In this document: positions 2,509-25,905 of the stretch, in pieces | Layout of the letters: each line of letters begins with the position of its first letter | Numbering within the stretch: the stretch's first letter is position 1 | Source: a virus | Taxonomy: Duplodnaviria; Caudoviricetes | Strand: one strand, 5' to 3' | IMG/VR virus record: IMGVR_UViG_3300046786_000293 | Span: 256,001-320,000 of that record | Length of the DNA: 64,000 nucleotides | Notes under the pieces: generated by a model | Database searches by the model: none | What the model saw: only the letters and a program-made list of their open reading frames with translations | What the model was told of the DNA's origin: nothing | Translations under genes and position numbers: made by a program

Positions 2509-3416
2509 ACCGCCATCTCCGCTTTAATTGTACTATGACTTTGATAATTGATTAATTCAATGTCTGCCATAGTAAACTTATTAATATCTGTAATATTTTG
2601 ATTAAGCTGAAGTTGTGGACCAGATAAGGGTTCACGTGATAATTGCTCTTTTACCTGCTCTACATGATTTAGATATATGTGTGCATCACCTAATACGTGA
2701 ACGAACTCCCCCACATCCAAATTGCACACTTGAGCTATAAGATGCGTTAGCAAACTGTAGCTTGCGATATTGAAGGGTACACCTAAAAACATGTCACAAC
2801 TTCTTTGATACATCTGACAACTTAGTCGATTGTCTGCAACGTAAAACTGGGCAAAGGTATGACACGGTGGGAGGGCCATGGCTTCTAATTCACCTGGGTT
2901 CCATGCTGATAATATATGTCGTCTTCCGTGCGGGTCCCGTTTAATGCCCTCAATAAGATTCTTTAATTGATCGACTTCTTTAAAATGTACGTAGCCTGAT
3001 CTATGAAACTGGTTTCCAAAATCATCTTTAAATGTTTCTTGCTTATGCTCTATAGGTGTGCGCCATTTGCGCCATTGTACTCCATAGACTCTTCCAAGAT
3101 CTCCTGCATATTTTGCTTGAGGATACCAATAATCTGCCAAAGCGTTACCTGTCCATATAGTTGTCTTGCTACTGTCACGAGTACCATGTAGTATTTCGGC
3201 GAGCCGTCGTTCATCGCCGCTTCCTTCGATAAACCATAAAAGTTCGCTTACAACACTTTTCCAAGCTAGCTTCTTAGTAGTGATAGCAGGAAATTCTTTG
3301 CTTAGATCATAACGTTGTTGCATACCAAACACGCTAATAGTACCCGTACCAGTTCTATCTTGTTTGGTTGTACCATTTTCTAATACGTACTTTAATGCGT
3401 CTAAGTATTGTTTCAT
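2505..3416 (-). CDS. thyA: Thymidylate synthase ThyA
   Basis: [28 protein letters not shown] (catalytic Cys), [24 protein letters not shown]. Confidence 0.97.
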
Positions 3417-4153
3417 AATGATAATTTATTTTTAATATAATTAAATAGAATTCGGTGACCGTACCTATTAGGGTGAACGCCATCCGGATGAAATATTTCT
3501 TCTTTACTTATTATACTATTTTCTTTATGTTTGTATAGTTCTTTGACTATTTTTGTTTGCAATGCGTAATCGTATAAATTTAAATTTATATCGTTTATCG
3601 TCCAATCGGGATTTAACACTATAGATTCTTCGTTTAATCTTTTGTATTCTGCCATATGTCCAACTAGCATATGACTAAACGAAGAAACCAATGGTATTAG
3701 GTATTCGAATTGTCTAATTAGTGTTAAGTTGATGTTACATAATCCACCTATCACATACACAACAGTATTATATTCTTGTGCAATAATATTTAATTTATTA
3801 TAGTCAGTTCTAATTAAATCTAGAATTAAATTTTCTATACCGTCTGCATTTTGAATTGCTGTGGTTAAGATATGTTTGTTATATTCGAATAGCTGCAATC
3901 GTAAATTACGTATTGGATCAGTTTGAAAGATAAAAATATAATCTTCTGAGTTAAAATGTTCTATTAGATTTGTCAACAATCTATCAATAGCCGAAGCATT
4001 ACTACTACCCCCTTCAGAAGAATTGAATACTTCATATCCAGCTTCGATAAAGTATTGTTCTAATCCTTTATGTGAGATTCTCCTACCGGTGTGGTCTCTT
4101 GTCCATTCTCCGCATCCCCAGCTATCACCAGTGATAAAGATTTTATGCGACAT
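3413..4153 (-). CDS. SGNH/GDSL hydrolase-like protein
   Basis: ITGDSW block I and PDGVHPN (DxxH) at the C-terminus. Confidence 0.75.
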
Positions 4154-4155
4154 GT

Positions 4156-4662
4156 TTACCGTGTGAAAGGGTCAATGTTTTTATAAGTCATCCATGTACA
4201 TTTCCTATCCGTACTAGGACCTGCACTACGTGCTTGGAAAAAACTTAAATATTTTTTTAGATCGATTTGGACATCAGTTCGAAATTGTCCTTTGAAATGT
4301 GTAATATGTACTTCGTCTACTAAATCTCGAGTTGACATTAAAATTTCTGGCCCACCGATAATCCAAATAGTTTTCGTTGGATTATTTTCTGCAATAACTT
4401 TTATAGAGGAAGATATATCACCGCGGATAGTACGAACACCATCGTATCCAAATAATGGTCTATTAGTAACTACGTAAGTAGTCCTATTAGGTAATGGCTT
4501 AGGCATCTTGGGATCATCCCAAGTTTTCCTGCCCATTATTACTATATCGCCTTGTGTTTGTTCTTTGAAATACTGTAGATCTTCAGAGTGATGGGGCCAA
4601 GGCAATGAACCTTTAAGCCCCATTCCACCCCAATGATCTACGGCAAATATTGCCTTAATCAT
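4156..4662 (-). CDS. folA: Dihydrofolate reductase
   Basis: GMGLKGSLPWP, DLQYFK, IVIMGRKTW, PLPNR, WIIGG. Confidence 0.95.
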   Translation of the reverse strand: MIKAIFAVDHWGGMGLKGSLPWPHHSEDLQYFKEQTQGDIVIMGRKTWDDPKMPKPLPNRTTYVVTNRPLFGYDGVRTIRGDISSSIKVIAENNPTKTIWIIGGPEILMSTRDLVDEVHITHFKGQFRTDVQIDLKKYLSFFQARSAGPSTDRKCTWMTYKNIDPFTR

Positions 4663-4997
4663 AATTTACTTAATAACTTATCTGTTTCTGGCTGAACAGT
4701 TTTCTCTACTGCATCAATGTCTACAAAGAAATCTATATTGTCTATATACATATCTAATTCATCGAGTCTCGAATTAACATGTGTTTCTAATTCATCGGGG
4801 TCCGTACCTTCTGCTAAAATTCTCTTAATGTCTATTTGCACAATAGTTCCATCTTTAAGATGGACCATTAATTTTTCTAACACATGAATCGGGACTTCGT
4901 CTTTGTCTACGTCTTTAAGTATATTTTTCCAAGTTGACTTTGAATTAATATTAAGCCGTTTTGACTTTGGCTGTTTTTTTGGTTTTTGTTCCGCCAT
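4659..4997 (-). CDS. Hypothetical protein
   Basis: 112-aa ORF in the co-oriented operon; acidic C-terminal half. Confidence 0.65.
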   Translation of the reverse strand: MAEQKPKKQPKSKRLNINSKSTWKNILKDVDKDEVPIHVLEKLMVHLKDGTIVQIDIKRILAEGTDPDELETHVNSRLDELDMYIDNIDFFVDIDAVEKTVQPETDKLLSKL

Positions 4998-5640
4998 TTT
5001 CTTTTACTGCACCGTTAAGTTCTGAGGCTTCTTTCATTAGCCTATCTGCTTCTGCTAGCAATTGCTTGGCTTCGGCGGCCATCTTCTGAGCTTGTGCCAT
5101 ACGTTGTGTGGCCATCTGCTCATCTGAAAGTACTTCATTAATACTTATCGTATTTGAAACTTCTACAGGTGTACTGCGACTATTTCGTGGAGTACGAACT
5201 TCATTGATGTCTCTTCCTTCTGCAGGGCGACGTCTCTTGCCAGTCATACCAGCTCCAGCGTCTAATTCGGCCATTTCCTTAACTGCTTCTTCACCTAATT
5301 CCATCTTATTAAGAATTTCGTTTAGTTCATCTAGACGAACTGTACTCTTAGCATTAGGTGTAATGATAACTTGGTTCGTTGGAACTTTTTTAATCATGTT
5401 TTCACGATGTAATGTTTCCAACGCATTAGTACCATCTTGCATAGTAAATCTAAACAAGTAGTCGGCAAGATCTTTTGCTTGTTGCCCAGATTCGGACTCT
5501 AATGCTGCCATGATATCATCATGAATATGGCGGGGAAGTGTCTCAGGGTATAGTAATAGACACATGTGGTCTTCGCCAGGTACTTTTCTAAAAAGCAAAA
5601 CAACTTTCTTATTGCCGTGCTTGCCTACGTGTTTGATCAT
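4951..5640 (-). CDS. Hypothetical protein
   Basis: 229-aa ORF, ATGA-coupled to the upstream gene; C-terminal coiled coil. Confidence 0.7.
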   Translation of the reverse strand: MIKHVGKHGNKKVVLLFRKVPGEDHMCLLLYPETLPRHIHDDIMAALESESGQQAKDLADYLFRFTMQDGTNALETLHRENMIKKVPTNQVIITPNAKSTVRLDELNEILNKMELGEEAVKEMAELDAGAGMTGKRRRPAEGRDINEVRTPRNSRSTPVEVSNTISINEVLSDEQMATQRMAQAQKMAAEAKQLLAEADRLMKEASELNGAVKENGGTKTKKTAKVKTA

Positions 5641-5876
5641 TGAGGATCTCCTTGGGGTTGTTGTCCTTCAGCCGCGGCAGGCTGTTGGGGCTGTATAACA
5701 CCACTGGCTAGCAAGAAATTAAAAATTCTTTCGTAGCAAGGGCCGATGGTTGTGAATTCTTCAGGCTTGAATGCGCCACGACTAGAAGCTAAATTTAAAG
5801 TTTCTAGTACTACAACTAAATCAGATAGATTTAACTGTGGTTGATTCTGTGGCTGTTCTTTTGCTTGGTCTGACAT
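5637..5876 (-). CDS. Small hypothetical protein
   Basis: 79 aa, GGAG RBS, downstream of a TAAATA motif. Confidence 0.7.
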   Translation of the reverse strand: MSDQAKEQPQNQPQLNLSDLVVVLETLNLASSRGAFKPEEFTTIGPCYERIFNFLLASGVIQPQQPAAAEGQQPQGDPQ

Positions 5877-5884
5877 ATTTTCTC

Positions 5885-5920
5885 CGATAATACATAAGAT
5901 ATTTACTATGTGTATTATCA
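5885..5920 (-). promoter_or_regulatory. T4-like late promoter TAAATA in the loop of a hairpin adjacent to the RBS
   Basis: Minus strand reads GATAATACACATAG-TAAATA-TCTTATGTATTATC-GGAG; TAAATA at 5900-5905. Confidence 0.6.
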
Positions 5921-5936
5921 GTGAAAATATTTTTCT

Positions 5937-6227
5937 TTAAGTCAAACCCTGTTCCCAAGTATTAATTTTGTCCAAAAAGAGGCTGAAATAACTAGCTTCA
6001 CTATGAACCTCAAAGGCTGCACACTTGCGACTTTTTGTACCTTCGCTGTCGGTAAAGATGTAGTCACCGAAATAAAATCTACCATCTAAATGTTCGTAGA
6101 TCCAATCGGTTATTCTTTTTTCGGACGTTGCTAGATCAAACGGCACTATTGCAAAGTGCGGCGGACAATGAACCATTTGTCTTATACCGAATACATTCAA
6201 AGGATTAATTTCACCGTGTTTAAGCAT
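5937..6227 (-). CDS. Hypothetical protein, related to the small 'W..G...F...EA..F.L' family
   Basis: ITDWIYEHLDG...AAFEVHSEASYFSLF. Confidence 0.7.
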   Translation of the reverse strand: MLKHGEINPLNVFGIRQMVHCPPHFAIVPFDLATSEKRITDWIYEHLDGRFYFGDYIFTDSEGTKSRKCAAFEVHSEASYFSLFLDKINTWEQGLT

Positions 6228-6316
6228 TATTTAAATTGATTTAAAAAATAGTCAATTAGCCAAGCAATCAAACTTATTACTACAATAAAAAATATACATA
6301 GAATTAGGTACTCCAT
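6227..6316 (-). CDS. 29-aa single-TM micro-protein (not in ORF track)
   Basis: MEYLILCIFFIVVISLIAWLIDYFLNQFK*; TAATG overlap with the next gene. Confidence 0.55.
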   Translation of the reverse strand: MEYLILCIFFIVVISLIAWLIDYFLNQFK

Positions 6317-6390
6317 TTTACGGATTTTCCTTTCTTCCATTGGCGATAGCACCACTTTATATACAACCAACGCTCGCCTTTGAGTTCCAT
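6304..6390 (-). CDS. 28-aa basic, Trp-rich micro-protein (not in ORF track)
   Basis: MELKGERWLYIKWCYRQWKKGKSVKWST*; fills the gap between neighbours. Confidence 0.4.
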   Translation of the reverse strand: MELKGERWLYIKWCYRQWKKGKSVKWST

Positions 6391-6403
6391 AAATTTTTTA
6401 ATA

Positions 6404-6877
6404 TTAAACATTGTCGCCTTCCTTAGTTAATTCGCACACCATTAGAAATTGTTCAAATGCCAACTTAACAGTATCATATTTCATAAGTTTTTCAGCTTCG
6501 GCTTGCATAGCCGCAATACCTGCTTCGGCAACATCGTGAGCACTTTTCCAATGTAAAAATCTTGCTCGTTCGCCAAATACTTTAACAAGTTGTTCCCATG
6601 CTTCTTTTTGCTCGTTGGTAAGAGGAGTCTCGGAATTTTCTTCTCTGCGAATCTCCGAAGCCTCTTGTACAGCCCGAGTCATAGCATCTTCGGCAATACG
6701 TCCAGCGGCAATCAATGCGGCAAAGTTTGGTTCTACGTTATAACGAGTAGATTTGCCACCGGGATACACGCTGATTAAGTGATTGCCTTTGGGTAATGCA
6801 TCTAATAATGCGTAGTCATACTCGTATACCGGTTTGTATCTACGCCCAACTTTTTCATAAAAAATCTTCTTGGTCAT
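6404..6877 (-). CDS. Hypothetical protein
   Basis: 157-aa ORF in the operon. Confidence 0.7.
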   Translation of the reverse strand: MTKKIFYEKVGRRYKPVYEYDYALLDALPKGNHLISVYPGGKSTRYNVEPNFAALIAAGRIAEDAMTRAVQEASEIRREENSETPLTNEQKEAWEQLVKVFGERARFLHWKSAHDVAEAGIAAMQAEAEKLMKYDTVKLAFEQFLMVCELTKEGDNV

Positions 6878-7154
6878 TTTTTAAACCGTTACTATGTCTA
6901 TCTGTTTCTCGTTCAACGTCTTGAAATAGACGTTTTTCTTGTGCTGTAAGTTTGTCTTTGCCGCCGCTATGTCTCGGATTACCGCATAAGAAGCATTCAG
7001 GATTACCGCAATCCATTGCATGTTTCTTATGTAAACGATGCGGATCTTTGACCGGAGCTCCGTGTTCTTTTGCAATTTTGGCTTGTCTTTTTACTGCGGT
7101 TTCGTCAGCGTGTCTACGCTTACTGTTTTTGATTTTTGCGTCTTGGTTGCTCAT
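6855..7154 (-). CDS. Hypothetical basic protein with a CxxxxCxxC putative Zn motif
   Basis: HAMDCGNPECFLCGNPRH. Confidence 0.7.
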   Translation of the reverse strand: MSNQDAKIKNSKRRHADETAVKRQAKIAKEHGAPVKDPHRLHKKHAMDCGNPECFLCGNPRHSGGKDKLTAQEKRLFQDVERETDRHSNGLKNDQEDFL

Positions 7155-7186
7155 CGAAATTCCTTAACTGCAATGTATTTAATGTA

Positions 7187-7429
7187 TTATAACACATTGA
7201 TCTTTTGTTGCAAAGCAAAAAAGGTTGCCGGAATTGAATCCACACAGTCTTTACGAATCCAAATTTCACCGCGCGGTAAAGTAAACCAAGGACGCTCTTG
7301 TAACTTTTGAGTTGTATTATTGTCTCCTAAGTACTGGCGACACAATTCAACTTCGGGCCAAGTTTTAGAATCGAAGTCCCAATTTATAGCTACTTTGAAA
7401 CAAAGGTGTGTTTGTTCGTAGAGTTTCAT
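7187..7429 (-). CDS. Small hypothetical protein, last gene of the tandem array
   Basis: MKLYEQTH...ELCRQYLG...WIRKDCVDSIPATFFALQ; ATGA coupling at 7426-7429. Confidence 0.6.
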   Translation of the reverse strand: MKLYEQTHLCFKVAINWDFDSKTWPEVELCRQYLGDNNTTQKLQERPWFTLPRGEIWIRKDCVDSIPATFFALQQKINVL

Positions 7430-7581
7430 GACCAACCCAACATAAACATTAGTGCTTCGGCTTCTGTGTCAAAATCGTTATAGACCGTACCACGAGTACC
7501 GTAAGTTGATGTAAAGAACAAGGTAGCACGCCACATACCATCTATTTCTTCGATCTCCCAGTGACTTTCTTTGTATCTCAT
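7426..7581 (-). CDS. 51-aa array member (not in ORF track)
   Basis: MRYKESHWEIEEIDGMWRATLFFTSTYGTRGTVYNDFDTEAEALMFMLGWS*; ATGA overlaps at both ends. Confidence 0.7.
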   Translation of the reverse strand: MRYKESHWEIEEIDGMWRATLFFTSTYGTRGTVYNDFDTEAEALMFMLGWS

Positions 7582-7835
7582 GACCACCTTAACTTACACA
7601 GTAGTGCATCGTTTTCATTAATGAACCAAACACTTTTCAAAAACATTTTGTAAACGTGCGGGTCAAATGTTGCCTGGCACCATTCTGCGATTTTGGTATA
7701 TTTGTTTTCCTCTGACGGCAGGTAAATGGCACTTGCGTATTCTGCACCTTTGTGCCAACCCATGTCCGGTGCCTCGTAAGGATGCATAGGTACCCTAACC
7801 TTCTTGCCGTCAATGTAAATCCACAATTCGGTCAT
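7578..7835 (-). CDS. Small array-family protein
   Basis: IAEWCQATF...WFINENDALLCKLRWS. Confidence 0.75.
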   Translation of the reverse strand: MTELWIYIDGKKVRVPMHPYEAPDMGWHKGAEYASAIYLPSEENKYTKIAEWCQATFDPHVYKMFLKSVWFINENDALLCKLRWS

Positions 7836-8185
7836 TTCATTAACTCTTTAATCATGTTGTATTGATCAACAGCCTCCTGAACTTTCTTCCAGGCATCTTC
7901 TAAGGTTACATTGTGTGTTTGTTTTAGTTTACGCAAAGTAACACTGGGAGGATCTTCCTCGACCCAATCATCGGGTGTAGCATCAGTCCAGTAATAAACT
8001 ATAGCATAATGACTATCATCACTTTTGTAGTCACGCCATTCATTCTTTTTCTTATCGTAATAGAGATAATCGTGGTCACTGTCGCCGTCGGCCTTGCCAC
8101 CCATACCCCATCCGCGATAGGATAGATAGTATCCCGATGTATCGGGTTGACGTTCTTCTGTTCGATACCAAATACTTGTTCTCAT
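7832..8185 (-). CDS. Hypothetical protein
   Basis: 117 aa, aromatic-rich N-terminal domain (WYRTEERQPDTSGYYL). Confidence 0.65.
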   Translation of the reverse strand: MRTSIWYRTEERQPDTSGYYLSYRGWGMGGKADGDSDHDYLYYDKKKNEWRDYKSDDSHYAIVYYWTDATPDDWVEEDPPSVTLRKLKQTHNVTLEDAWKKVQEAVDQYNMIKELMK

Positions 8186-8641
8186 TTATTCAGTCTCCAA
8201 TACATTCCACATACCCAGTTTCTCTCGCAACATTTCGTTTTCTTTTTTAAACTTCTTAAGGTCTTGTTCTGTTTCTTGTTTGATATTGTTAGCAACTACT
8301 ACTTCCTTTTCCATTTCGTGAAGTATTTTGGCAATGTTGCGGGCTCGTAGTTGATCACGCTCTTGAGTCATATCTTCAAATTTACATTCCCAACTGTCAG
8401 ATTCACGTCTATAGAAGTCTACATCGTTTTCAAGTTGTCTGATATAATTACCTGGGCTGTAGCTTTGATAATCGATTTCAAATTCAAAAGTCTTTGGGTC
8501 CATACCTGCTGATACAAGATCAGCATATAGTCCACTGGTATCACGCAACAGCATATTCAGTAGTCGCCGGACAACGGGATCTTCGGACTCGAGATCCAAA
8601 TAGTGCAGAAGTTCTGCGTCTGATAACATAGTATAATTCAT
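8186..8641 (-). CDS. Coiled-coil hypothetical protein
   Basis: Start re-placed at the ATG in the ATGA overlap (MNYTMLSD); heptad-rich C-terminal half. Confidence 0.65.
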   Translation of the reverse strand: MNYTMLSDAELLHYLDLESEDPVVRRLLNMLLRDTSGLYADLVSAGMDPKTFEFEIDYQSYSPGNYIRQLENDVDFYRRESDSWECKFEDMTQERDQLRARNIAKILHEMEKEVVVANNIKQETEQDLKKFKKENEMLREKLGMWNVLETE

Positions 8642-8838
8642 GGCTTTCTCAATTCGAACCACATAGCATCTTCTTCACACTCAAACCATATGGTGTCGCT
8701 ACCATAGTAGAGATAGAATTTTCCTGTACTTTCTTGCAGTTGCAAATCACGTTTAACTGTGAGATAGTTCCACCCACCACGTTGAACACGATGCCAATGT
8801 TGTTCGCGAATGCGTTTATCTTTGTTCCAGTACTTCAT
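8638..8838 (-). CDS. Small array-family protein
   Basis: MKYWNKD...IWFECEEDAMWFELRKP. Confidence 0.75.
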   Translation of the reverse strand: MKYWNKDKRIREQHWHRVQRGGWNYLTVKRDLQLQESTGKFYLYYGSDTIWFECEEDAMWFELRKP

Positions 8839-9083
8839 GACCACCTCAATACAAACCACTCAAGGTCTTCTGCATCCCTAAATCGAGCTTCACCGTAGTA
8901 AATGTCATCTAACCACCTAGCTTGCTGTGTGTCAGAATTAAAGCCCGACGGGCCAAATGTCTCGTAACACCATGCACCAATGTCATAATAGTATTTCGGG
9001 GCGGTAAATGCCGCAACGTGCCATGGCCCGCCACCTGAACCATCTACATCCTTCTTTAGCTGATATGTGTGAATAAACATCAT
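8835..9083 (-). CDS. Small array-family protein
   Basis: IGAWCYETFG...RFRDAEDLEWFVLRWS. Confidence 0.75.
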   Translation of the reverse strand: MMFIHTYQLKKDVDGSGGGPWHVAAFTAPKYYYDIGAWCYETFGPSGFNSDTQQARWLDDIYYGEARFRDAEDLEWFVLRWS

Positions 9084-9295
9084 GCCCACTTCAACAAAAA
9101 TGCTGAATAACTTGCCTCGGCGGGAAATTTAACGATCATTTGGTGTCTTGGATTGATGTCCTGGTAAACTTTGATAGCACCGTAGTCACGCTCCAGCATT
9201 TCCCAAATGCTCATGCCCACAACATCGTAGCCGCCAGCATTGTCCCAATACCAGTTGGCCAGTTTCTTCCACTGCGGTTGTATATCTGCTATCAT
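9080..9295 (-). CDS. Small array-family protein
   Basis: MIADIQP...VKFPAEASYSAFLLKWA. Confidence 0.75.
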   Translation of the reverse strand: MIADIQPQWKKLANWYWDNAGGYDVVGMSIWEMLERDYGAIKVYQDINPRHQMIVKFPAEASYSAFLLKWA

Positions 9296-9594
9296 GCCCA
9301 CCTCAATGTAAACATTATAGCATCTTTTTCAGTTTCAAACCAGAAATTATTACCATTCCAAGCATAACTATCTTTACCAAAGTGTTCTACACACCATATG
9401 TGCATTTCTCGCCAATGCCCTGACCATTCAGCCAATCGGGGATTTACCATATAGTAACCACCACTACGAAACACCGAAGTCCAATCTGGTATTTCTGGCG
9501 GCACTATTTTTAGTAAAACTTCTGCGGCTGTTTGACGATTATACCGCTCACGGTGTTCGGTTCTTCGCTCTATGATAAATTCATGAATGTTCAT
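9292..9594 (-). CDS. Small array-family protein
   Basis: MHIWCVEHFG...FWFETEKDAIMFTLRWA. Confidence 0.75.
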   Translation of the reverse strand: MNIHEFIIERRTEHRERYNRQTAAEVLLKIVPPEIPDWTSVFRSGGYYMVNPRLAEWSGHWREMHIWCVEHFGKDSYAWNGNNFWFETEKDAIMFTLRWA

Positions 9595-9791
9595 TCCCAC
9601 CTCAGTGCAAACCATTCGGCATTACTTTTAACTTGAAATACATATCCACCATAACCCGATGACAGTAAAAAATGTTCTACGTGGTTTTCTTTCATCCACC
9701 CAATGAGGTCAAGCCAATCTTGAAACGATCTGACTCTATAAACCGGATAGTCGTTCCATCCAGAATACCCTGAGCGTTCTACTACTTTCAT
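9591..9791 (-). CDS. Small array-family protein
   Basis: LIGWMKEN...FQVKSNAEWFALRWE. Confidence 0.75.
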   Translation of the reverse strand: MKVVERSGYSGWNDYPVYRVRSFQDWLDLIGWMKENHVEHFLLSSGYGGYVFQVKSNAEWFALRWE

Positions 9792-10015
9792 GCCCACCTC
9801 AACACAAACAACAGTAACTCGTCGTCGGGGAAATCATCGGGAAATACTAAGTTATCGAAGTCCATTGGAACTAAGAATCCAAATTGCTTTAGCCATTTGA
9901 TATAATCGTTAAATCTGAAATGATCATTATCGTCAAATACGTTTGGTGTACCGCACTGGCGGTGGTATTCTGCTACAATATTTTGTAGATAGGGACGTTG
10001 TGGGATAGTTTTCAT
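9788..10015 (-). CDS. Small array-family protein
   Basis: YIKWLKQFG...FPDDELLLFVLRWA. Confidence 0.75.
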   Translation of the reverse strand: MKTIPQRPYLQNIVAEYHRQCGTPNVFDDNDHFRFNDYIKWLKQFGFLVPMDFDNLVFPDDFPDDELLLFVLRWA

Positions 10016-10224
10016 GCCCACCTCAACATAAACAACATAGCATCTTGTTCAGATCTAAAATGCCACACAGTTTGGTCTCGACGAAACATTGCGCCCCTGT
10101 AGTCGTCCTGACAGTTTTGTTTGCACCACTCAAACCTTTGATCCTGTCCCCAAACCCAACCACCTGAATGCGGCACTTCTACACGATGTTGGAGATCTTG
10201 ACTGCGACTGTATTTTGCTGTCAT
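10012..10224 (-). CDS. Small array-family protein
   Basis: FEWCKQNC...WHFRSEQDAMLFMLRWA. Confidence 0.75.
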   Translation of the reverse strand: MTAKYSRSQDLQHRVEVPHSGGWVWGQDQRFEWCKQNCQDDYRGAMFRRDQTVWHFRSEQDAMLFMLRWA

Positions 10225-10505
10225 GCCCACCTCAACAAAAATGCACTAACCAACTTCTCATCATAAAAGTAAATATGGCCACCGTGATAGTCCCAGCTAC
10301 TGGATTCTGCGCCTGCTAGATCACTGAGTGGATTGCCAAGTTCCCACAACCATTTATACAGACCATGCGGCCAGTCTATAGGCGTACGATAAGTTTCCCA
10401 GCGTTCTTTGCTGGGATTGTATTCAACCCGCCACTCGTTTTTGGTATGTTTGCGACGAATAGTTGCCAAAATTCTCTCCACTGGAGTTAAAGGTCCATGA
10501 CTCAT
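10221..10505 (-). CDS. Small array-family protein
   Basis: LYKWLWELG...YFYDEKLVSAFLLRWA. Confidence 0.75.
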   Translation of the reverse strand: MSHGPLTPVERILATIRRKHTKNEWRVEYNPSKERWETYRTPIDWPHGLYKWLWELGNPLSDLAGAESSSWDYHGGHIYFYDEKLVSAFLLRWA

Positions 10506-10708
10506 GACCACCTCATCAACAACCACTCAACACCGGGCTTGTTCATATAATACACACCCCAACCTACGTGCCAGTGCGGGATAGCATTTTCCTTTAACCA
10601 CGCAGTTACTTTGTCGGACCCAAGAGCGTCGGCACCGACTTCTACCCTGTAATTGTAGGGATATTGCTGTGATACTTTATAGCCGAGATCTTTGATTTCG
10701 ATTTTCAT
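10502..10708 (-). CDS. Small array-family protein
   Basis: VTAWLKEN...YMNKPGVEWLLMRWS. Confidence 0.75.
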   Translation of the reverse strand: MKIEIKDLGYKVSQQYPYNYRVEVGADALGSDKVTAWLKENAIPHWHVGWGVYYMNKPGVEWLLMRWS

Positions 10709-10929
10709 AACCACTTCAATGAAAAGAAGAAAGCGTCTTGCTCACGCTCAAATGCAAATTTGCTTTCGTTTGTTTTCGGATCAAATGTAGACTTAAACAG
10801 TCCTGGAATGTTGAACTGGCAATAAATGTGCAATCCCATATGAGCCACGTTATGTTGACGCCTTTGCTCTGTGGTAATTGTAACGGGGTGCCACCCTCTT
10901 CGAACAGCACCCCGCACACTTGTTGGCAT
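10705..10929 (-). CDS. Small array-family protein, first gene of the array
   Basis: MPTSVRG...FAFEREQDAFFFSLKWL; start re-placed at the ATG 7 nt after the vWA gene stop. Confidence 0.7.
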   Translation of the reverse strand: MPTSVRGAVRRGWHPVTITTEQRRQHNVAHMGLHIYCQFNIPGLFKSTFDPKTNESKFAFEREQDAFFFSLKWL

Positions 10930-10936
10930 ATTCTTT

Positions 10937-12232
10937 TTACGCACGGGCCAATTTCTTAGCTTCTTCGTAGTGCGCCCACACACCAAACTCGGGCTCGGCA
11001 TCTTTGTTGCCTTTAATAACCCATACAGTATCGCAGTAGTCTTTGACTTCGTCGGGACGCCAGCCAAAGAAGCAGAAGTCTGTAAACATAATCAGCTTCT
11101 TAGGTTCAACGTCATTGTCTTTGAGCCATTCCCACACACAATGCGGATCGGTGCCGCCACCGCCGCCGGGTTGGTATTCAGTAATGTCTGACATGTTTTC
11201 GCTACTAAACTCTACTGGGTTGTAAACTTCAGTATCCCAAGTCAACACACGAACCTTATACTCGTCGTAAGATTCCATGATACCTTTAACTTCACTCAAA
11301 AAGTCTTTCAAGTCCTGTTCGCTAATACTTCCTGAAGTGTCAATAGCAACACAGACATCAATCTGCGTACCGGGCTTCATGCCGGGCATAATTGCATCCA
11401 TATGCCAGCTACGACGGTTAGGGCGCATCCAGCTAAAGTCATCTTTAACAGTACTTTGGATTTGTTGCTCCAACAGTTCACGCCAGTTAACCACAGGCTT
11501 AGTCAAGTCTTTGATCAGACGCTTAACACCTGCGGGCAAGTTACCTGCACCAACTGCCTGTGCGGCCTGCAACAATGCTTCGCGGATCTCGTCTTTAATG
11601 CGCTCACGTTCTTCTTTAGAGAGACGCGGACGACCTTTGCCGTCCTTTTCGTCGCCGTCGCCATCGCCATCGCCGTCACCGGAGCCATCTAAGTGCTCAT
11701 CCAAAACTTGTTGTAGCAAATCGCTGATGTCAATCTTTTCTGCTTTGTCGTACAGGTCGTCGTAGACTTCTTCAGCCGACCAACCTTTGTACTTAGGATC
11801 GTACAGGCAAGGTGTAATCTTGTCACCAATCTTTTGTTCAATCAAATCACTGTTAACACAATAGTCAGCGGCACAATTGAACAGACGCTTGTCGCGAGTT
11901 TCGCCAACACGACCCATGTGGTCGTAGACATTGTGTAGAACTTCGTGGCCAAACAAGAACTCAACTTCTTTGGGTTTGAGTTTGTTAACAAATTCGGTAT
12001 TGTAATAAAAGTTACGACCATCTGTAGCCGCAGTGGTCAGCCAATCGTCTGCATTAACCAAAGACAAACGAGTAGCCAAGTTACCAAAGAACGGGGCACG
12101 AAGCAAAAGACCGATACGTGCCGTAACCAACTTCTCCCGCACTTGTCGATCCAAATTGGGGTCTACGGTATCAGTAAGACGACCGCCAAGTTTATGGGTA
12201 GTTTTTTCTGCACTAGTTGTATTTGTAGCCAT
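10937..12232 (-). CDS. vWA-domain protein with N-terminal zincin metallopeptidase-like domain (MoxR partner)
   Basis: TAATDG, HEVLH (HExxH), acidic GD linker, MIDAS DTSGS...GGGGT...FTD; start re-placed at MATNTT. Confidence 0.85.
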   Translation of the reverse strand: MATNTTSAEKTTHKLGGRLTDTVDPNLDRQVREKLVTARIGLLLRAPFFGNLATRLSLVNADDWLTTAATDGRNFYYNTEFVNKLKPKEVEFLFGHEVLHNVYDHMGRVGETRDKRLFNCAADYCVNSDLIEQKIGDKITPCLYDPKYKGWSAEEVYDDLYDKAEKIDISDLLQQVLDEHLDGSGDGDGDGDGDEKDGKGRPRLSKEERERIKDEIREALLQAAQAVGAGNLPAGVKRLIKDLTKPVVNWRELLEQQIQSTVKDDFSWMRPNRRSWHMDAIMPGMKPGTQIDVCVAIDTSGSISEQDLKDFLSEVKGIMESYDEYKVRVLTWDTEVYNPVEFSSENMSDITEYQPGGGGGTDPHCVWEWLKDNDVEPKKLIMFTDFCFFGWRPDEVKDYCDTVWVIKGNKDAEPEFGVWAHYEEAKKLARA

Positions 12233-12256: not shown

Positions 12257-12305
12257 ATTATAGCAGAAAAGCGAATTTCTGCCAAGTAATACCAAGGTAT
12301 TACTT
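12257..12305 (-). promoter_or_regulatory. Sigma70-type promoter with an overlapping perfect palindrome (candidate operator)
   Basis: TTGGCA (12280-12285)-17 nt-TATAAT (12257-12262); AAGTAATACC-AA-GGTATTACTT at 12284-12305. Confidence 0.75.
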
Positions 12306-12751: not shown

Positions 12752-13039
12752 TTACATCCATTTCAATTTGATAAAACTTGCTTCGTTGTCGCTAGCAAGA
12801 TAAATGTAGCAATAACTTCTGCTGGAATTATAACTATCAACATTAAACGCCCATACAGGAGTTTTAAATGACGCATCCCGATAAGTAAACTCGAGTTCAC
12901 AACTCGGGCCCCAAATGGCCCAACAATCGGAACGAATTTTATTAAAGTCTGAATAACCTTTTTCGTTTGCAGTAAACGAAATTCGATATTTGAACTTGTC
13001 AATTCCTTTGTGTCGTCGATCTAACTTTTCTAGTATCAT
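12752..13039 (-). CDS. Array-family homolog inside the AAA-vWA operon
   Basis: MILEKLDRRH...DCWAIWG...YLASDNEASFIKLKWM. Confidence 0.65.
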   Translation of the reverse strand: MILEKLDRRHKGIDKFKYRISFTANEKGYSDFNKIRSDCWAIWGPSCELEFTYRDASFKTPVWAFNVDSYNSSRSYCYIYLASDNEASFIKLKWM

Positions 13040-15510: not shown

Positions 15511-15591
15511 ATTATAACAAATTTTGGAATTTCGAGCAATACCCGAGTAAAACGAAAGGGTATTACAAAAGTAGTACTTAGGTATTACTTT
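15511..15591 (-). promoter_or_regulatory. Sigma70-type early promoter with an upstream imperfect palindrome
   Basis: TTGCTC (15534-15539)-17 nt-TATAAT (15511-15516); AAAGTAGTAC-TTAG-GTATTACTTT at 15568-15591. Confidence 0.7.
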
Positions 15592-15952
15592 CTAAATGGT
15601 CCAAATAACTAGCAAGATCACTACCTTGTAATTCGAGCCAAATAGCGTCTTGTTCGTCAAAAACAATGAATTTATTAGTGCGGGTCCAATAGTAGTAGGG
15701 GCCCGGAAAGAACCGTTCGAGTTGAAGAAGATTTTTGTTTGTGAGCGGGCGCTCTAGTTCAAACATATAGTCCCTAAGTTTCAACTCTTTCTTAAGGAAC
15801 TGATAGCCCGTCATACTTAGACGTAGGCTATTTTTATCGGTAAAGTTATGCCAAATAAATTTTGTATCAACTATGGCTTTGCTCAATTGCTGAGCAAATA
15901 TTTTTGCTAGTTGATGTTGCGTGTAGCGTTTAGGGGTAGATCCTGTCACCAC
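15578..15952 (-). CDS. Hypothetical protein
   Basis: 124 aa; ends FIVFDEQDAIWLEL, resembling the array-family motif. Confidence 0.7.
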   Translation of the reverse strand: MVTGSTPKRYTQHQLAKIFAQQLSKAIVDTKFIWHNFTDKNSLRLSMTGYQFLKKELKLRDYMFELERPLTNKNLLQLERFFPGPYYYWTRTNKFIVFDEQDAIWLELQGSDLASYLDHLESNT

Positions 15953-16217
15953 TTTTTAAGAGCACTACTGTAAACAAATCTGTTTTAAATAGTGTGTTCA
16001 TTTTTTTAGCCAAGTTAATGGCATGACCCGGATTTGAGAACGAAGTCTTTTTATATTTAGGCCCGGGGTAGTTGACGAGCATATTACTCGACTTTAAGTT
16101 GATTGGTTGGTTATCATAGAAAACAGCCCATATACCTTCACTACTCAAGATTTGTTCGCTCTTGTAGTTTGATTTGTTGACGTGTTCTACTAACACAGTT
16201 GGTTTAGGTCTACTCAT
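15930..16217 (-). CDS. Hypothetical protein
   Basis: 95 aa, downstream of a TAAATA motif at 16238-16243. Confidence 0.75.
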   Translation of the reverse strand: MSRPKPTVLVEHVNKSNYKSEQILSSEGIWAVFYDNQPINLKSSNMLVNYPGPKYKKTSFSNPGHAINLAKKMNTLFKTDLFTVVLLKSGDRIYP

Positions 16218-24624: not shown

Positions 24625-25134
24625 TTATTCCCACCAACGCTCGTAGGGAAAAACAATCCATTCTTTTTTGCTTTTAGTAATCTCTTCGCCACTAAAGTCT
24701 ATGGTAACGTGGGACTTACTGCTAACGTTATCGTATACTACTGCAAATTTTACATTATGATTCCAAACATCTTTCCAACTTGGATCCTTGGGTAAACAAC
24801 TAGATTGCCAATCTTCGATAAGCCAATTAATTGTTTTACCTGTATCATTGATGTCGTCGACAATGAGAATCTTTTTGCGAGCAGTTACCTCAGGCTTGCC
24901 GTATTCGTAGCCAAATGCATCTTCAGCCATCCACAAATTACTTTCGTTAGTTTCGGGCTTGCTGGTTACATGTAGTGCATACATAGGAATATCAAAATAG
25001 TGACTAATCATAACTGCGGGAATAAGACCACCGCGAGTTAGTCCTACAATATAATCGGGGCGCCAATTACTAATAGCAATGCTTCGACAAATTTTAGCGA
25101 CCCGGCTATTATATTCTTTATTAGTAAGATCCAT
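24625..25134 (-). CDS. Type I phosphoribosyltransferase (purine PRTase-like)
   Basis: IVGLTRGGLIPA, ILIVDDINDTGKT (PRPP loop), WIVFPYE. Confidence 0.88.
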   Translation of the reverse strand: MDLTNKEYNSRVAKICRSIAISNWRPDYIVGLTRGGLIPAVMISHYFDIPMYALHVTSKPETNESNLWMAEDAFGYEYGKPEVTARKKILIVDDINDTGKTINWLIEDWQSSCLPKDPSWKDVWNHNVKFAVVYDNVSSKSHVTIDFSGEEITKSKKEWIVFPYERWWE

Positions 25135-25459
25135 GTTGTTCTCGTTCCATTTGTTCTTTAAGATTATGATTAGTGATTATATTACTAAACTTAAGTATAA
25201 ACATACTAGCAATACTAGCATCTTCACCATTGAAATGCAATCTACTGCCGCCGAGGCCATTTTGATGATGATGACACCATTTACCTTTGCCGTATGATAC
25301 GTAAGGTACATTATTTTCTTTGCCCCGGCTATTCCAAAAGTGTTCGACTTTTTTATTGCCGCCAATTTGGTCGTACCATTCAACAACTTCGTCGTTGAGT
25401 TCTTCTATGTCTATCCAAATTGGATAAACTACTCGACACCCTGGGGGTAGTGCTATCAT
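25121..25459 (-). CDS. Hypothetical protein, array-family-like C-terminus
   Basis: VEWYDQIGG...LHFNGEDASIASMFILKF. Confidence 0.65.
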   Translation of the reverse strand: MIALPPGCRVVYPIWIDIEELNDEVVEWYDQIGGNKKVEHFWNSRGKENNVPYVSYGKGKWCHHHQNGLGGSRLHFNGEDASIASMFILKFSNIITNHNLKEQMEREQHGSY

Positions 25460-25905
25460 TTTGCCCTTTCAGACAAATATTGTTCCCACTGTACCCATTG
25501 TCCTTTGCGTAGGAATCCCCATTCGCGTTGTTTTGCTCCGGGCATAAACAATGTCCAACAAGTTACATCAGGATCAAGTTCGATACGATGATAACTGTTT
25601 GCACTACAAATACGAAAGTGTCCGGGGCCACGCCAATGTTGAAATTCGGCAATCTTAACTCCTTGATTGTTAAACACAGGAGTCCATTCCCAATATCCGC
25701 CTTTAAGGATAATAGTTGCATAGGGCCAAGGATGATCGTGCAAATCGTCGGGGTCGGACTTAAGAAATTTGTGTAGAAATATGTTAAATGGAAACCGTGT
25801 TCTGTCTTTGAGAAACACATAATAGCGTTCCAAGTAAGGTTCGTTGTTGACACGGTCCATAACAATACGTTTACGACCTAACTTTTCTAGCAATTTAAGA
25901 AACAT
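25456..25905 (-). CDS. Cupin-fold hypothetical protein
   Basis: LHKF, LHDHPW, GGYWE, YHRIEL, WTLF. Confidence 0.75.
   Translation of the reverse strand: MFLKLLEKLGRKRIVMDRVNNEPYLERYYVFLKDRTRFPFNIFLHKFLKSDPDDLHDHPWPYATIILKGGYWEWTPVFNNQGVKIAEFQHWRGPGHFRICSANSYHRIELDPDVTCWTLFMPGAKQREWGFLRKGQWVQWEQYLSERAK

Follow-up and report, generated by a model that had tools for sequence, protein, structure and literature searches.

In a 64,000-nucleotide stretch of viral DNA (hereafter the window; bases 256001-320000 of the 338.5-kb IMG/VR virus record IMGVR_UViG_3300046786_000293, Caudoviricetes, with an estimated completeness of 97%), we identified a tandem array of small genes that runs along the minus strand from position 10929 down to 7187. 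It is very probably a translationally coupled, and probably polycistronic, chain of anciently diverged paralogs, which fills a hypervariable slot and is shuffled at the repeat forming its gene junctions. According to the mechanism that we propose, the members would share about 65 core residues arranged as beta-alpha-beta-beta-alpha, with a last helix that must end in L-(R/K)-W. A single stretch of 15 bases would then provide the C-terminus and TGA stop of one gene, the ATGA overlap and, 3 nucleotides (nt) upstream of the following ATG, a GAGGTG Shine-Dalgarno (SD) sequence, so that a ribosome finishing one cassette would be passed to the next, whichever gene follows. The last 15-48 nt are the same in every cassette, and recombination between such direct repeats could therefore delete, insert or reorder whole cassettes and leave expression intact, so that the arrays of related phages range from a single member to more than 20. 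We consider as new (i) the family itself, (ii) the recruitment of the C-terminal motif to serve as SD sequence and overlap, kept across distant phages including a cyanophage-like contig, and (iii) the coincidence of cassette exchange points with this junction element. The public sequencing runs that contain the array stretch of this jumbo phage are freshwater metagenomes, and no RNA run was listed among them.

The array comprises 15 abutting open reading frames (ORFs) with zero intergenic bases between them, as the initial annotation, made by reading the sequence, had described. Thirteen of the 14 junctions are ATGA overlaps, while in the remaining one (8186/8185) a TAA is followed directly by ATG; all 14 thus fall within the stop/start spacing (-4 to +3 nt) that serves as a criterion for coupled operons. 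Default ORF calls start most array genes at an in-frame upstream GTG (or ATG/TTG), but it is the ATG inside the overlap that is correctly spaced from a ribosome-binding site. About 13 paralogs had been proposed. The existence of one family in tandem was confirmed, with 12 ORFs as its secure members (E 1e-21 to 7e-3 with an external profile built from 131 metagenomic sequences alone, none of them from the window); this profile gave no match to two embedded ORFs of 151 and 117 amino acids (aa), nor a significant one to the terminal ORF of 80 aa. In order of transcription, the array consists of:

10705-10929, minus strand: m01, family member, 74 aa, ends SLKWL; external profile E 4.9e-12; first gene past the VWA/metallopeptidase gene
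10502-10708, minus strand: m02, family member by profile, 68 aa, ends LMRWS; ortholog P0002 (81%) on contig L004
10221-10505, minus strand: m03, family member by profile, 94 aa, ends LLRWA; ortholog on L004 (82%)
10012-10224, minus strand: m04, family member by profile, 70 aa, ends MLRWA; ortholog P0025 (83%) on L107, with other neighbours there
9788-10015, minus strand: m05, weakest family member, 75 aa, ends VLRWA; own-array profile E 9e-8, external profile E 0.007
9591-9791, minus strand: m06, family member by external profile, 66 aa, ends ALRWE
9292-9594, minus strand: m07, family member, 100 aa, ends TLRWA; external profile E 1e-21; modelled representative
9080-9295, minus strand: m08, family member by external profile, 71 aa, ends LLKWA; ortholog P0020 (59%) on L108
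8835-9083, minus strand: m09, family member by external profile, 82 aa, ends VLRWS
8638-8838, minus strand: m10, family member by external profile, 66 aa, ends ELRKP; degenerate junction
8186-8641, minus strand: non-member of 151 aa without family match, C-terminal half helix-rich as judged by eye
7832-8185, minus strand: non-member of 117 aa without family match; 44% ortholog on L107, two genes past the m04 ortholog
7578-7835, minus strand: m13, family member by external profile, 85 aa, ends KLRWS
7426-7581, minus strand: m14, shortest family member (by external profile), 51 aa, ends MLGWS
7187-7429, minus strand: terminal ORF of 80 aa, a possible remote member from a pattern seen by eye (hhalign E 0.083, external profile E 0.21); TAA end, no coupled gene after it

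The genes are joined by a recurrent sequence. The junction 15-mer TTGAGGTGGGCATGA has 13 matches in the window at up to 3 mismatches, compared with 1.36 expected (none of 100 shuffles reached 13), and 12 of these lie inside the array; the nine consecutive near-identical junctions noted initially extend from 10705 to 8835. At the gene ends we found a 28-nt repeat in 12 copies and a 48-nt repeat in nine copies. The positions of the former are:

9786-9813, minus strand: reference copy of the 28-nt junction repeat, encoding F-x-L-R/K-W-S/A, stop, GAGGTG and the next ATG
7424, 7576, 8636, 8833, 9078, 9290, 9589, 9786, 10010, 10219, 10500 and 10703, minus strand: starts of the 28-nt repeat copies

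Codon usage at the junctions, which read TTG-AGG-TGG-NCA-TGA, is strongly biased. The Arg residue of the L-R-W motif is encoded by AGG at all eight array positions, although this triplet accounts for 5.6% of the Arg codons in 298 genes outside the array, and the Leu before it, counted from the gene ends, is encoded by TTG at eight of 11 positions (18.6% of Leu codons genome-wide). GAGGTG is complementary to the CACCUC of the 16S rRNA 3' tail. In the larger genes of this phage AGGA and GGAG are about 5-fold enriched, and AGGAG ends 6-7 nt before the ATG; GAGGTG stands 3 nt before the next ATG and lies three bases further 3' in the anti-SD register, and therefore its 3-nt spacer equals the usual aligned SD spacing of this genome.

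The same preference was observed in a codon survey of 131 members from 12 loci of about 11 phages. Where an overlapping or adjacent start follows (coupled junctions), the R/K codon is AGG in 56 of 93 cases, i.e. 56 of the 69 Arg codons; at ends without an adjacent start it is AGG in none of 12 (Fisher 4.7e-5), and CGC, CGA, AAA, AAG, CAA or TTA are used instead. Array-terminal members carry a CGC, CGA or AAA codon plus a TAA stop. For example, the last member of a 23-gene array in the related phage genome G002 ends CTA-CGC-TGG-CAA-TAA, which is followed by a 90-nt gap. The claim that the ribosome-binding site and overlapping start of a gene lie within the last codons of the member before it was thus borne out by the AGG usage, the spacing and the switch of codons at array ends; the junction codons do not vary freely.

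The L and W of the last helix remain conserved in uncoupled members, and the F preceding them is also nearly invariant. This near-invariance, the aromatic or hydrophobic nature of L and W and a confident helix model indicate that these two residues are probably structural, while R/K varies; the motif would therefore have been in the first place a requirement of the last helix, whose R/K position and synonymous sites were recruited for the SD sequence and the overlap. The same invariance, along with the recombination that demonstrably happens in this segment, could be taken to mean that the repeat is a mere by-product of an L-R-W-S/A constraint on the protein and of gene conversion between adjacent genes, and plays no part in translation. 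We consider this unlikely. The protein would allow six Leu, six Arg and four to six Ala/Ser codons; TTG-AGG-TGG-NCA-TGA is nevertheless kept across phages whose members are less than 30% identical, a cyanophage-like contig included. Moreover, AGG is rarely used elsewhere in the genome, the motif can pair with the 16S tail at the spacing usual for SD sequences of this genome, and uncoupled ends carry K, Q or CGN instead.

The surroundings of the array were compared in 80 syntenic loci, gathered through the VWA protein. Their backbone order is conserved: MoxR, a small gene, VWA, the variable slot, a 99-aa gene, a 157-aa gene, DHFR and further genes. In the window, the slot and its upstream region are delimited by:

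10937-12232, minus strand: DUF2201 metallopeptidase/VWA gene, conserved upstream border of the variable slot
6855-7154, minus strand: conserved gene of 99 aa (phrog_4499), downstream border of the variable slot
12257-12285, minus strand: sigma-70-like promoter match (11/12, TG extended) upstream of the VWA gene, the best in the window; a lead only

The slot holds one member in the closest relatives (VWA proteins 84-87% identical), about 8-12 members at 74-81% identity, and 12 members plus three other ORFs in the window. The VWA protein is also 38-45% identical to its counterparts in Pseudomonas phage PA5oct, Agrobacterium phage Atu_ph07 and Rak2-like jumbo phages. In G002 and G003, two complete genomes with approx. 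90% nucleotide identity, the arrays are located elsewhere in the genome and not in the VWA slot.

These placements bear on the idea that the array proteins serve specifically as adaptors for, or substrates of, the neighbouring pair formed by the MoxR AAA+ ATPase and the VWA/metallopeptidase. The array does lie directly after the VWA gene and may share its promoter, and there is a possible remote member between the MoxR and VWA genes, here and in several relatives. This explanation is nonetheless quite unlikely, given that the closest relatives retain MoxR and VWA with just one member behind them, that the large arrays of G001, G002 and G003 are far from VWA, beside a ligase or metallophosphoesterase gene, that the PA5oct members are located elsewhere too, and that similarity to the family is weak for the gene separating MoxR from VWA (hhalign E 0.007, external profile E 0.05). 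The latter gene (95 aa; 12752-13039, minus strand) ends in K-L-K-W; its counterparts occupy the same place in several relatives, some of them passing the family profile, and it may be a remote member that has become fixed alongside the MoxR/VWA pair.

Among relatives, the content and order of the cassettes were found to vary, and they do so at the repeat, as had been predicted. In L004, whose m02 and m03 orthologs show 85% DNA identity to those of the window, one extra cassette is placed exactly between the two, with both its ends in the same 28-nt repeat, and m04 and m05 are missing. An m10-like gene precedes an m07-like gene in L003, an m10 ortholog (70%) is followed directly by an m08 ortholog (59%) in L108, and the 83% m04 ortholog has changed neighbours in L107. 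Comparison of G002 with G003 revealed that the alignment of the 4.6-kb array A is split into eight blocks, and all 13 block ends are located -41 to +2 nt from the stop codon of a member (P 1.4e-9; the test zone was -45 to +5 nt of a member's stop, in which 21% of array A positions fall). In array B six of eight block ends fall in this zone around a member's stop codon (P 3.5e-5). Furthermore, in contigs from two other freshwater studies the similarity to the window stops precisely at 9292 and 10012, both of which are junctions. Ordinary recombination between the 15-48-nt direct repeats would be sufficient to produce such turnover. Read joints at 8186/8841, 8855/9292, 8855-8858/10012 and 8856/9080 were not used as proof of deletions, their shorter side being only 21-31 nt; they may reflect the repeated junction. 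A 402-aa ORF with no Pfam match (L093 10187-11395, plus strand) is present in array B of G002 and absent from the otherwise collinear G003; it amounts to a clean 1.2-kb insertion between two cassettes.

Variation of cassette content and order with breakpoints at a short conserved site, in the absence of convincing promoters inside the cassettes, would also be expected of a true integron-like system, in which a site-specific recombinase acts at the junction repeat (TGAGGTGG) to capture and excise cassettes. The initial comparison with integrons, taken as membership in this class of systems, did not hold, and we regard such a mechanism as very unlikely. A six-frame search of the whole 338.5-kb genome (97% complete) for PF00589 tyrosine recombinases gave no match, although all 14 control genomes were positive. 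The junctions are direct repeats only, with no attC-like inverted repeat or hairpin (the two inverted pairs that were found, 609 and 2360 nt apart, are away from the junction repeat copies), and have no Rfam match; the constraints of coding and ribosome binding are enough to explain the repeat.

Several observations weigh against the interpretation of the array as a coupled chain shuffled at its junctions. Outside the window, coupled Lys residues are encoded by AAA (15) more often than by AAG (7), and ten coupled Arg residues by AGA; a strong SD sequence is therefore not obligatory. The codon counts are of members that are not phylogenetically independent. The array-end control cannot fully separate selection on the ribosome-binding site from concerted evolution of the repeat, because terminal members also escape recombinational homogenisation. 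The location of breakpoints at gene borders could in part result from selection against broken genes rather than from a preference of recombination. Finally, the proposed coupling of translation is deduced from the nucleotide sequence.

The paralogs within the array are old. They are 12-30% identical to one another (the best in-array paralog reaches 26-47% over short stretches), and seven of the 12 have a best ortholog in other phages with 57-83% identity (28-100 residues aligned). The array was therefore put together from old lineages rather than produced by recent amplification. The pooled ratio of nonsynonymous to synonymous substitution rates (dN/dS) across 28 ortholog pairs is 0.15, indicating purifying selection, and thus real genes. 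A recent tandem amplification of one gene (a "genomic accordion", as in phages G and 121Q) would fit the head-to-tail arrangement, the very different copy numbers of relatives and the reported jumbo-phage arrays of more than 30 similar genes (PMC5646251), but with neighbours merely 12-30% identical, seven of 12 members closer to the ortholog of another phage than to any in-array paralog, and the family missing from 121Q, it is extremely improbable and, on these identities, already refuted for this array.

Searches with the array profile yielded 579 matches (E<=1e-3) among 1.84 billion cluster representatives, nearly all of them 60-110 aa long with the domain ending at the last residue. The family alignment has no conserved stretch of 7-10 columns. 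Scans of ten window members and ten outside homologs against Pfam and PHROGs gave no family for this domain, and neither megablast with the array nor tblastn with m07 or P0071 found a match among 50,697 cultured phage records. All named matches in a collection of 5.8 billion proteins are "hypothetical protein", and a literature search found no description of this family or architecture beyond general papers on coupling and jumbo-phage duplication. The array's own profile recovers the 12 members in this genome, with only faint matches elsewhere in it; per genome, there are 37 profile matches in G002, 34 in G003, six in G001, three in PA5oct and six weak ones in Atu_ph07, with no member of the LRW-tail family found by profile in 121Q. 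The PA5oct members (gp237, gp210 and gp209; E 6e-8 to 9e-5) are small and single or paired, form no array, lack the junction repeat, and lie among nucleotide-metabolism genes; they are not flagged as mass-spectrometry-detected virion proteins in the PA5oct record.

Another array, of approx. 17 members with the same junction, was found on L098 (positions 2530-7504 of this 53.5-kb ENA contig), whose gene set is typical of cyanophages (heme oxygenase, ferredoxin-dependent bilin reductase, HSP20 and ClpS); the family therefore reaches past the jumbo-phage clade. Small ORFs carrying a family-like segment (F-x-F-x-x-E-x-D-A-x-x-F-x-L) plus extra residues are also scattered through the window at 2266-2523, 5937-6230, 15578-15955 and 25121-25468 (minus strand), and in the genome at 94743-94994 (minus strand). 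These ORFs, with borderline scores (E 3e-5 to 7e-3 at Z=12), suggest a wider superfamily outside the arrays. The weak or borderline candidates at 7187, 12752, 2266, 5937, 15578 and 25121 were left out of the member count. N-terminal extensions occur in P0024, P0082, P0095 (L097 481-900) and P0071 (L098 4995-5387), encoded by genes inside ordinary arrays, and resemble pieces of other phage proteins: a P-loop-like G-R-Q-x-G-K-S, a polymerase-B-like Y-G-K-F-G and a piece of Laminin_G_3.

The m07 protein was modelled with AlphaFold2 from 143 sequences (predicted local distance difference test score, pLDDT, 91.4), giving a predicted beta-alpha-beta-beta-alpha core behind a variable N-terminal part. 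In the model of m05, the weakest case (pLDDT 70), both helices are in register, and the strands and sheet were not modelled; for most members, a shared fold would follow from homology to m07. The conserved positions of m07 are W67, C68, W79, F86, E89, D91, F95, L97 and W99, mostly aromatic or hydrophobic, with R98 conserved at 77%, and surface positions are strongly variable. Foldseek found no match to a solved fold in PDB (best E 1.1), a wide VIA-align search returned generic two-layer alpha/beta matches (V-ATPase subunit, ACT, RRM-like; best Z 4.7), and searches of BFVD and the ESM Atlas by shape and by feature returned viral hypothetical proteins only. A homodimer prediction for m07 scored 0.14 against a mark of 0.42, which counts neither way.

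Regarding function, we tentatively suggest that the proteins are made early or midway in infection and are not part of the virion, and that, with their conserved aromatic core and free surfaces, they could provide a set of small binders or inhibitors for taking over the host or countering its defences; this remains somewhat less probable than its alternatives taken together. The lack of homology and of a fold match (best VIA Z 4.7), and the mixed isoelectric points of the members (4.4-9.9), count against the suggestion. The same isoelectric range led us to reject the idea of uniformly acidic DNA mimics. The arrays are surrounded by replication and nucleotide-metabolism genes, i.e. DHFR here, and DNA ligase and metallophosphoesterase in G002; a metallophosphoesterase gene also lies near the family members on L098 and next to PA5oct gp237. 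In all, a calcineurin-like metallophosphoesterase is encoded near members in four unrelated contexts (L093 66-908, L098 1187-2002, L108 9721-10533 and PA5oct gp236), which may reflect only a shared placement in the nucleotide-metabolism module. More speculatively, the array could represent an integrase-free plug-and-play system, in which one element acts as structural C-terminus, SD sequence, stop/start overlap and preferred crossover, permitting large freshwater and cyanophage-like myoviruses to shuffle small binders (e.g. for counter-defence or host takeover) without silencing the genes downstream. We hold this to be rather doubtful; a bolder version would have the GGTGG-containing junction act, in addition, as a recombination hotspot signal in the host.

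No gene spacing is more common in prokaryotes than the -4 NTGA overlap, and none couples translation more efficiently (Brown and Wade 2025, PMC12548453). The array resembles such coupled pairs, e.g. trpB-trpA (PMC12548453), in its ATGA overlaps at 13 of 14 junctions and in having an SD sequence within the last codons of the upstream gene. In contrast to ordinary coupling, here the conserved C-terminal motif of a protein family contains both the SD sequence and the overlap, which are copied with each paralog, and the element is kept across distant phages and is also the substrate of recombination. In itself the overlap architecture is ordinary; what is unusual is that it has been merged with a protein motif common to the whole family.

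It is well known that integron cassette arrays involve IntI, attI, attC and Pc. The likeness of the phage arrays to them is one of outcome, i.e. expandable and reorderable sets of promoterless small genes, exchanged at cassette borders and, in the phage, presumably expressed from upstream. The phage arrays differ from integrons in that there is no integrase, no attC hairpins and no attI, and exchange is best explained by recombination, homologous or unequal, between coding direct repeats. The hyperplastic or hypervariable small-ORF regions of T4-like and cyanobacterial myoviruses are usually mixtures of unrelated ORFs. They are similar to the slot described here in lying between conserved genes, with variable small non-structural ORFs near nucleotide-metabolism or replication genes, but here one family with one junction dominates. 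The PA5oct proteins gp237, gp210 and gp209 and the six weak matches of Atu_ph07 share the family profile and differ in not forming arrays and in having no junction repeat.

Tandem arrays of similar genes have been described in the jumbo phages G and 121Q (Hua et al. 2017, PMC5646251). Like these, and like the multigene families and genomic accordions of large eukaryotic DNA viruses, the array is arranged head-to-tail, fills kilobases and varies in copy number. Its members, unlike near-identical duplicates, are old lineages with 12-30% identity, most of which have closer orthologs elsewhere.

The results define a large unannotated family of small phage proteins, with hundreds of clusters at 50% identity and up to 37 copies per genome, which extends from uncultured freshwater jumbo phages to the cultured PA5oct and Atu_ph07, in which it can be studied. 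They also provide a natural example of a triple constraint (protein, translation signal and recombination substrate) placed on one short sequence, with array ends as a natural control, and indicate how an expandable and reorderable repertoire of phage genes may be kept expressed without dedicated cassette machinery. In genome annotation, the junction motif can help to call these short genes despite their overlaps and to place their ATG starts correctly.

Promoter-like sites are as numerous in the window as in its shuffles, and only weak ones lie inside the array. The site at 12257-12285 is a candidate promoter, as a lead only, for the VWA gene and the array, which would then be transcribed together. 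A further sigma-70-like match (10/12, with TG extension; 7186-7214, minus strand) overlaps the end of the last array ORF; its position just upstream of the 99-aa gene fits the start of a new transcription unit where the variable slot ends. The 151-aa non-member (8186-8641) has an apparent counterpart inside an array of G002 (L093 4289-4765, plus strand), judged by eye from the likeness of their C-terminal tails, and may travel with the arrays.

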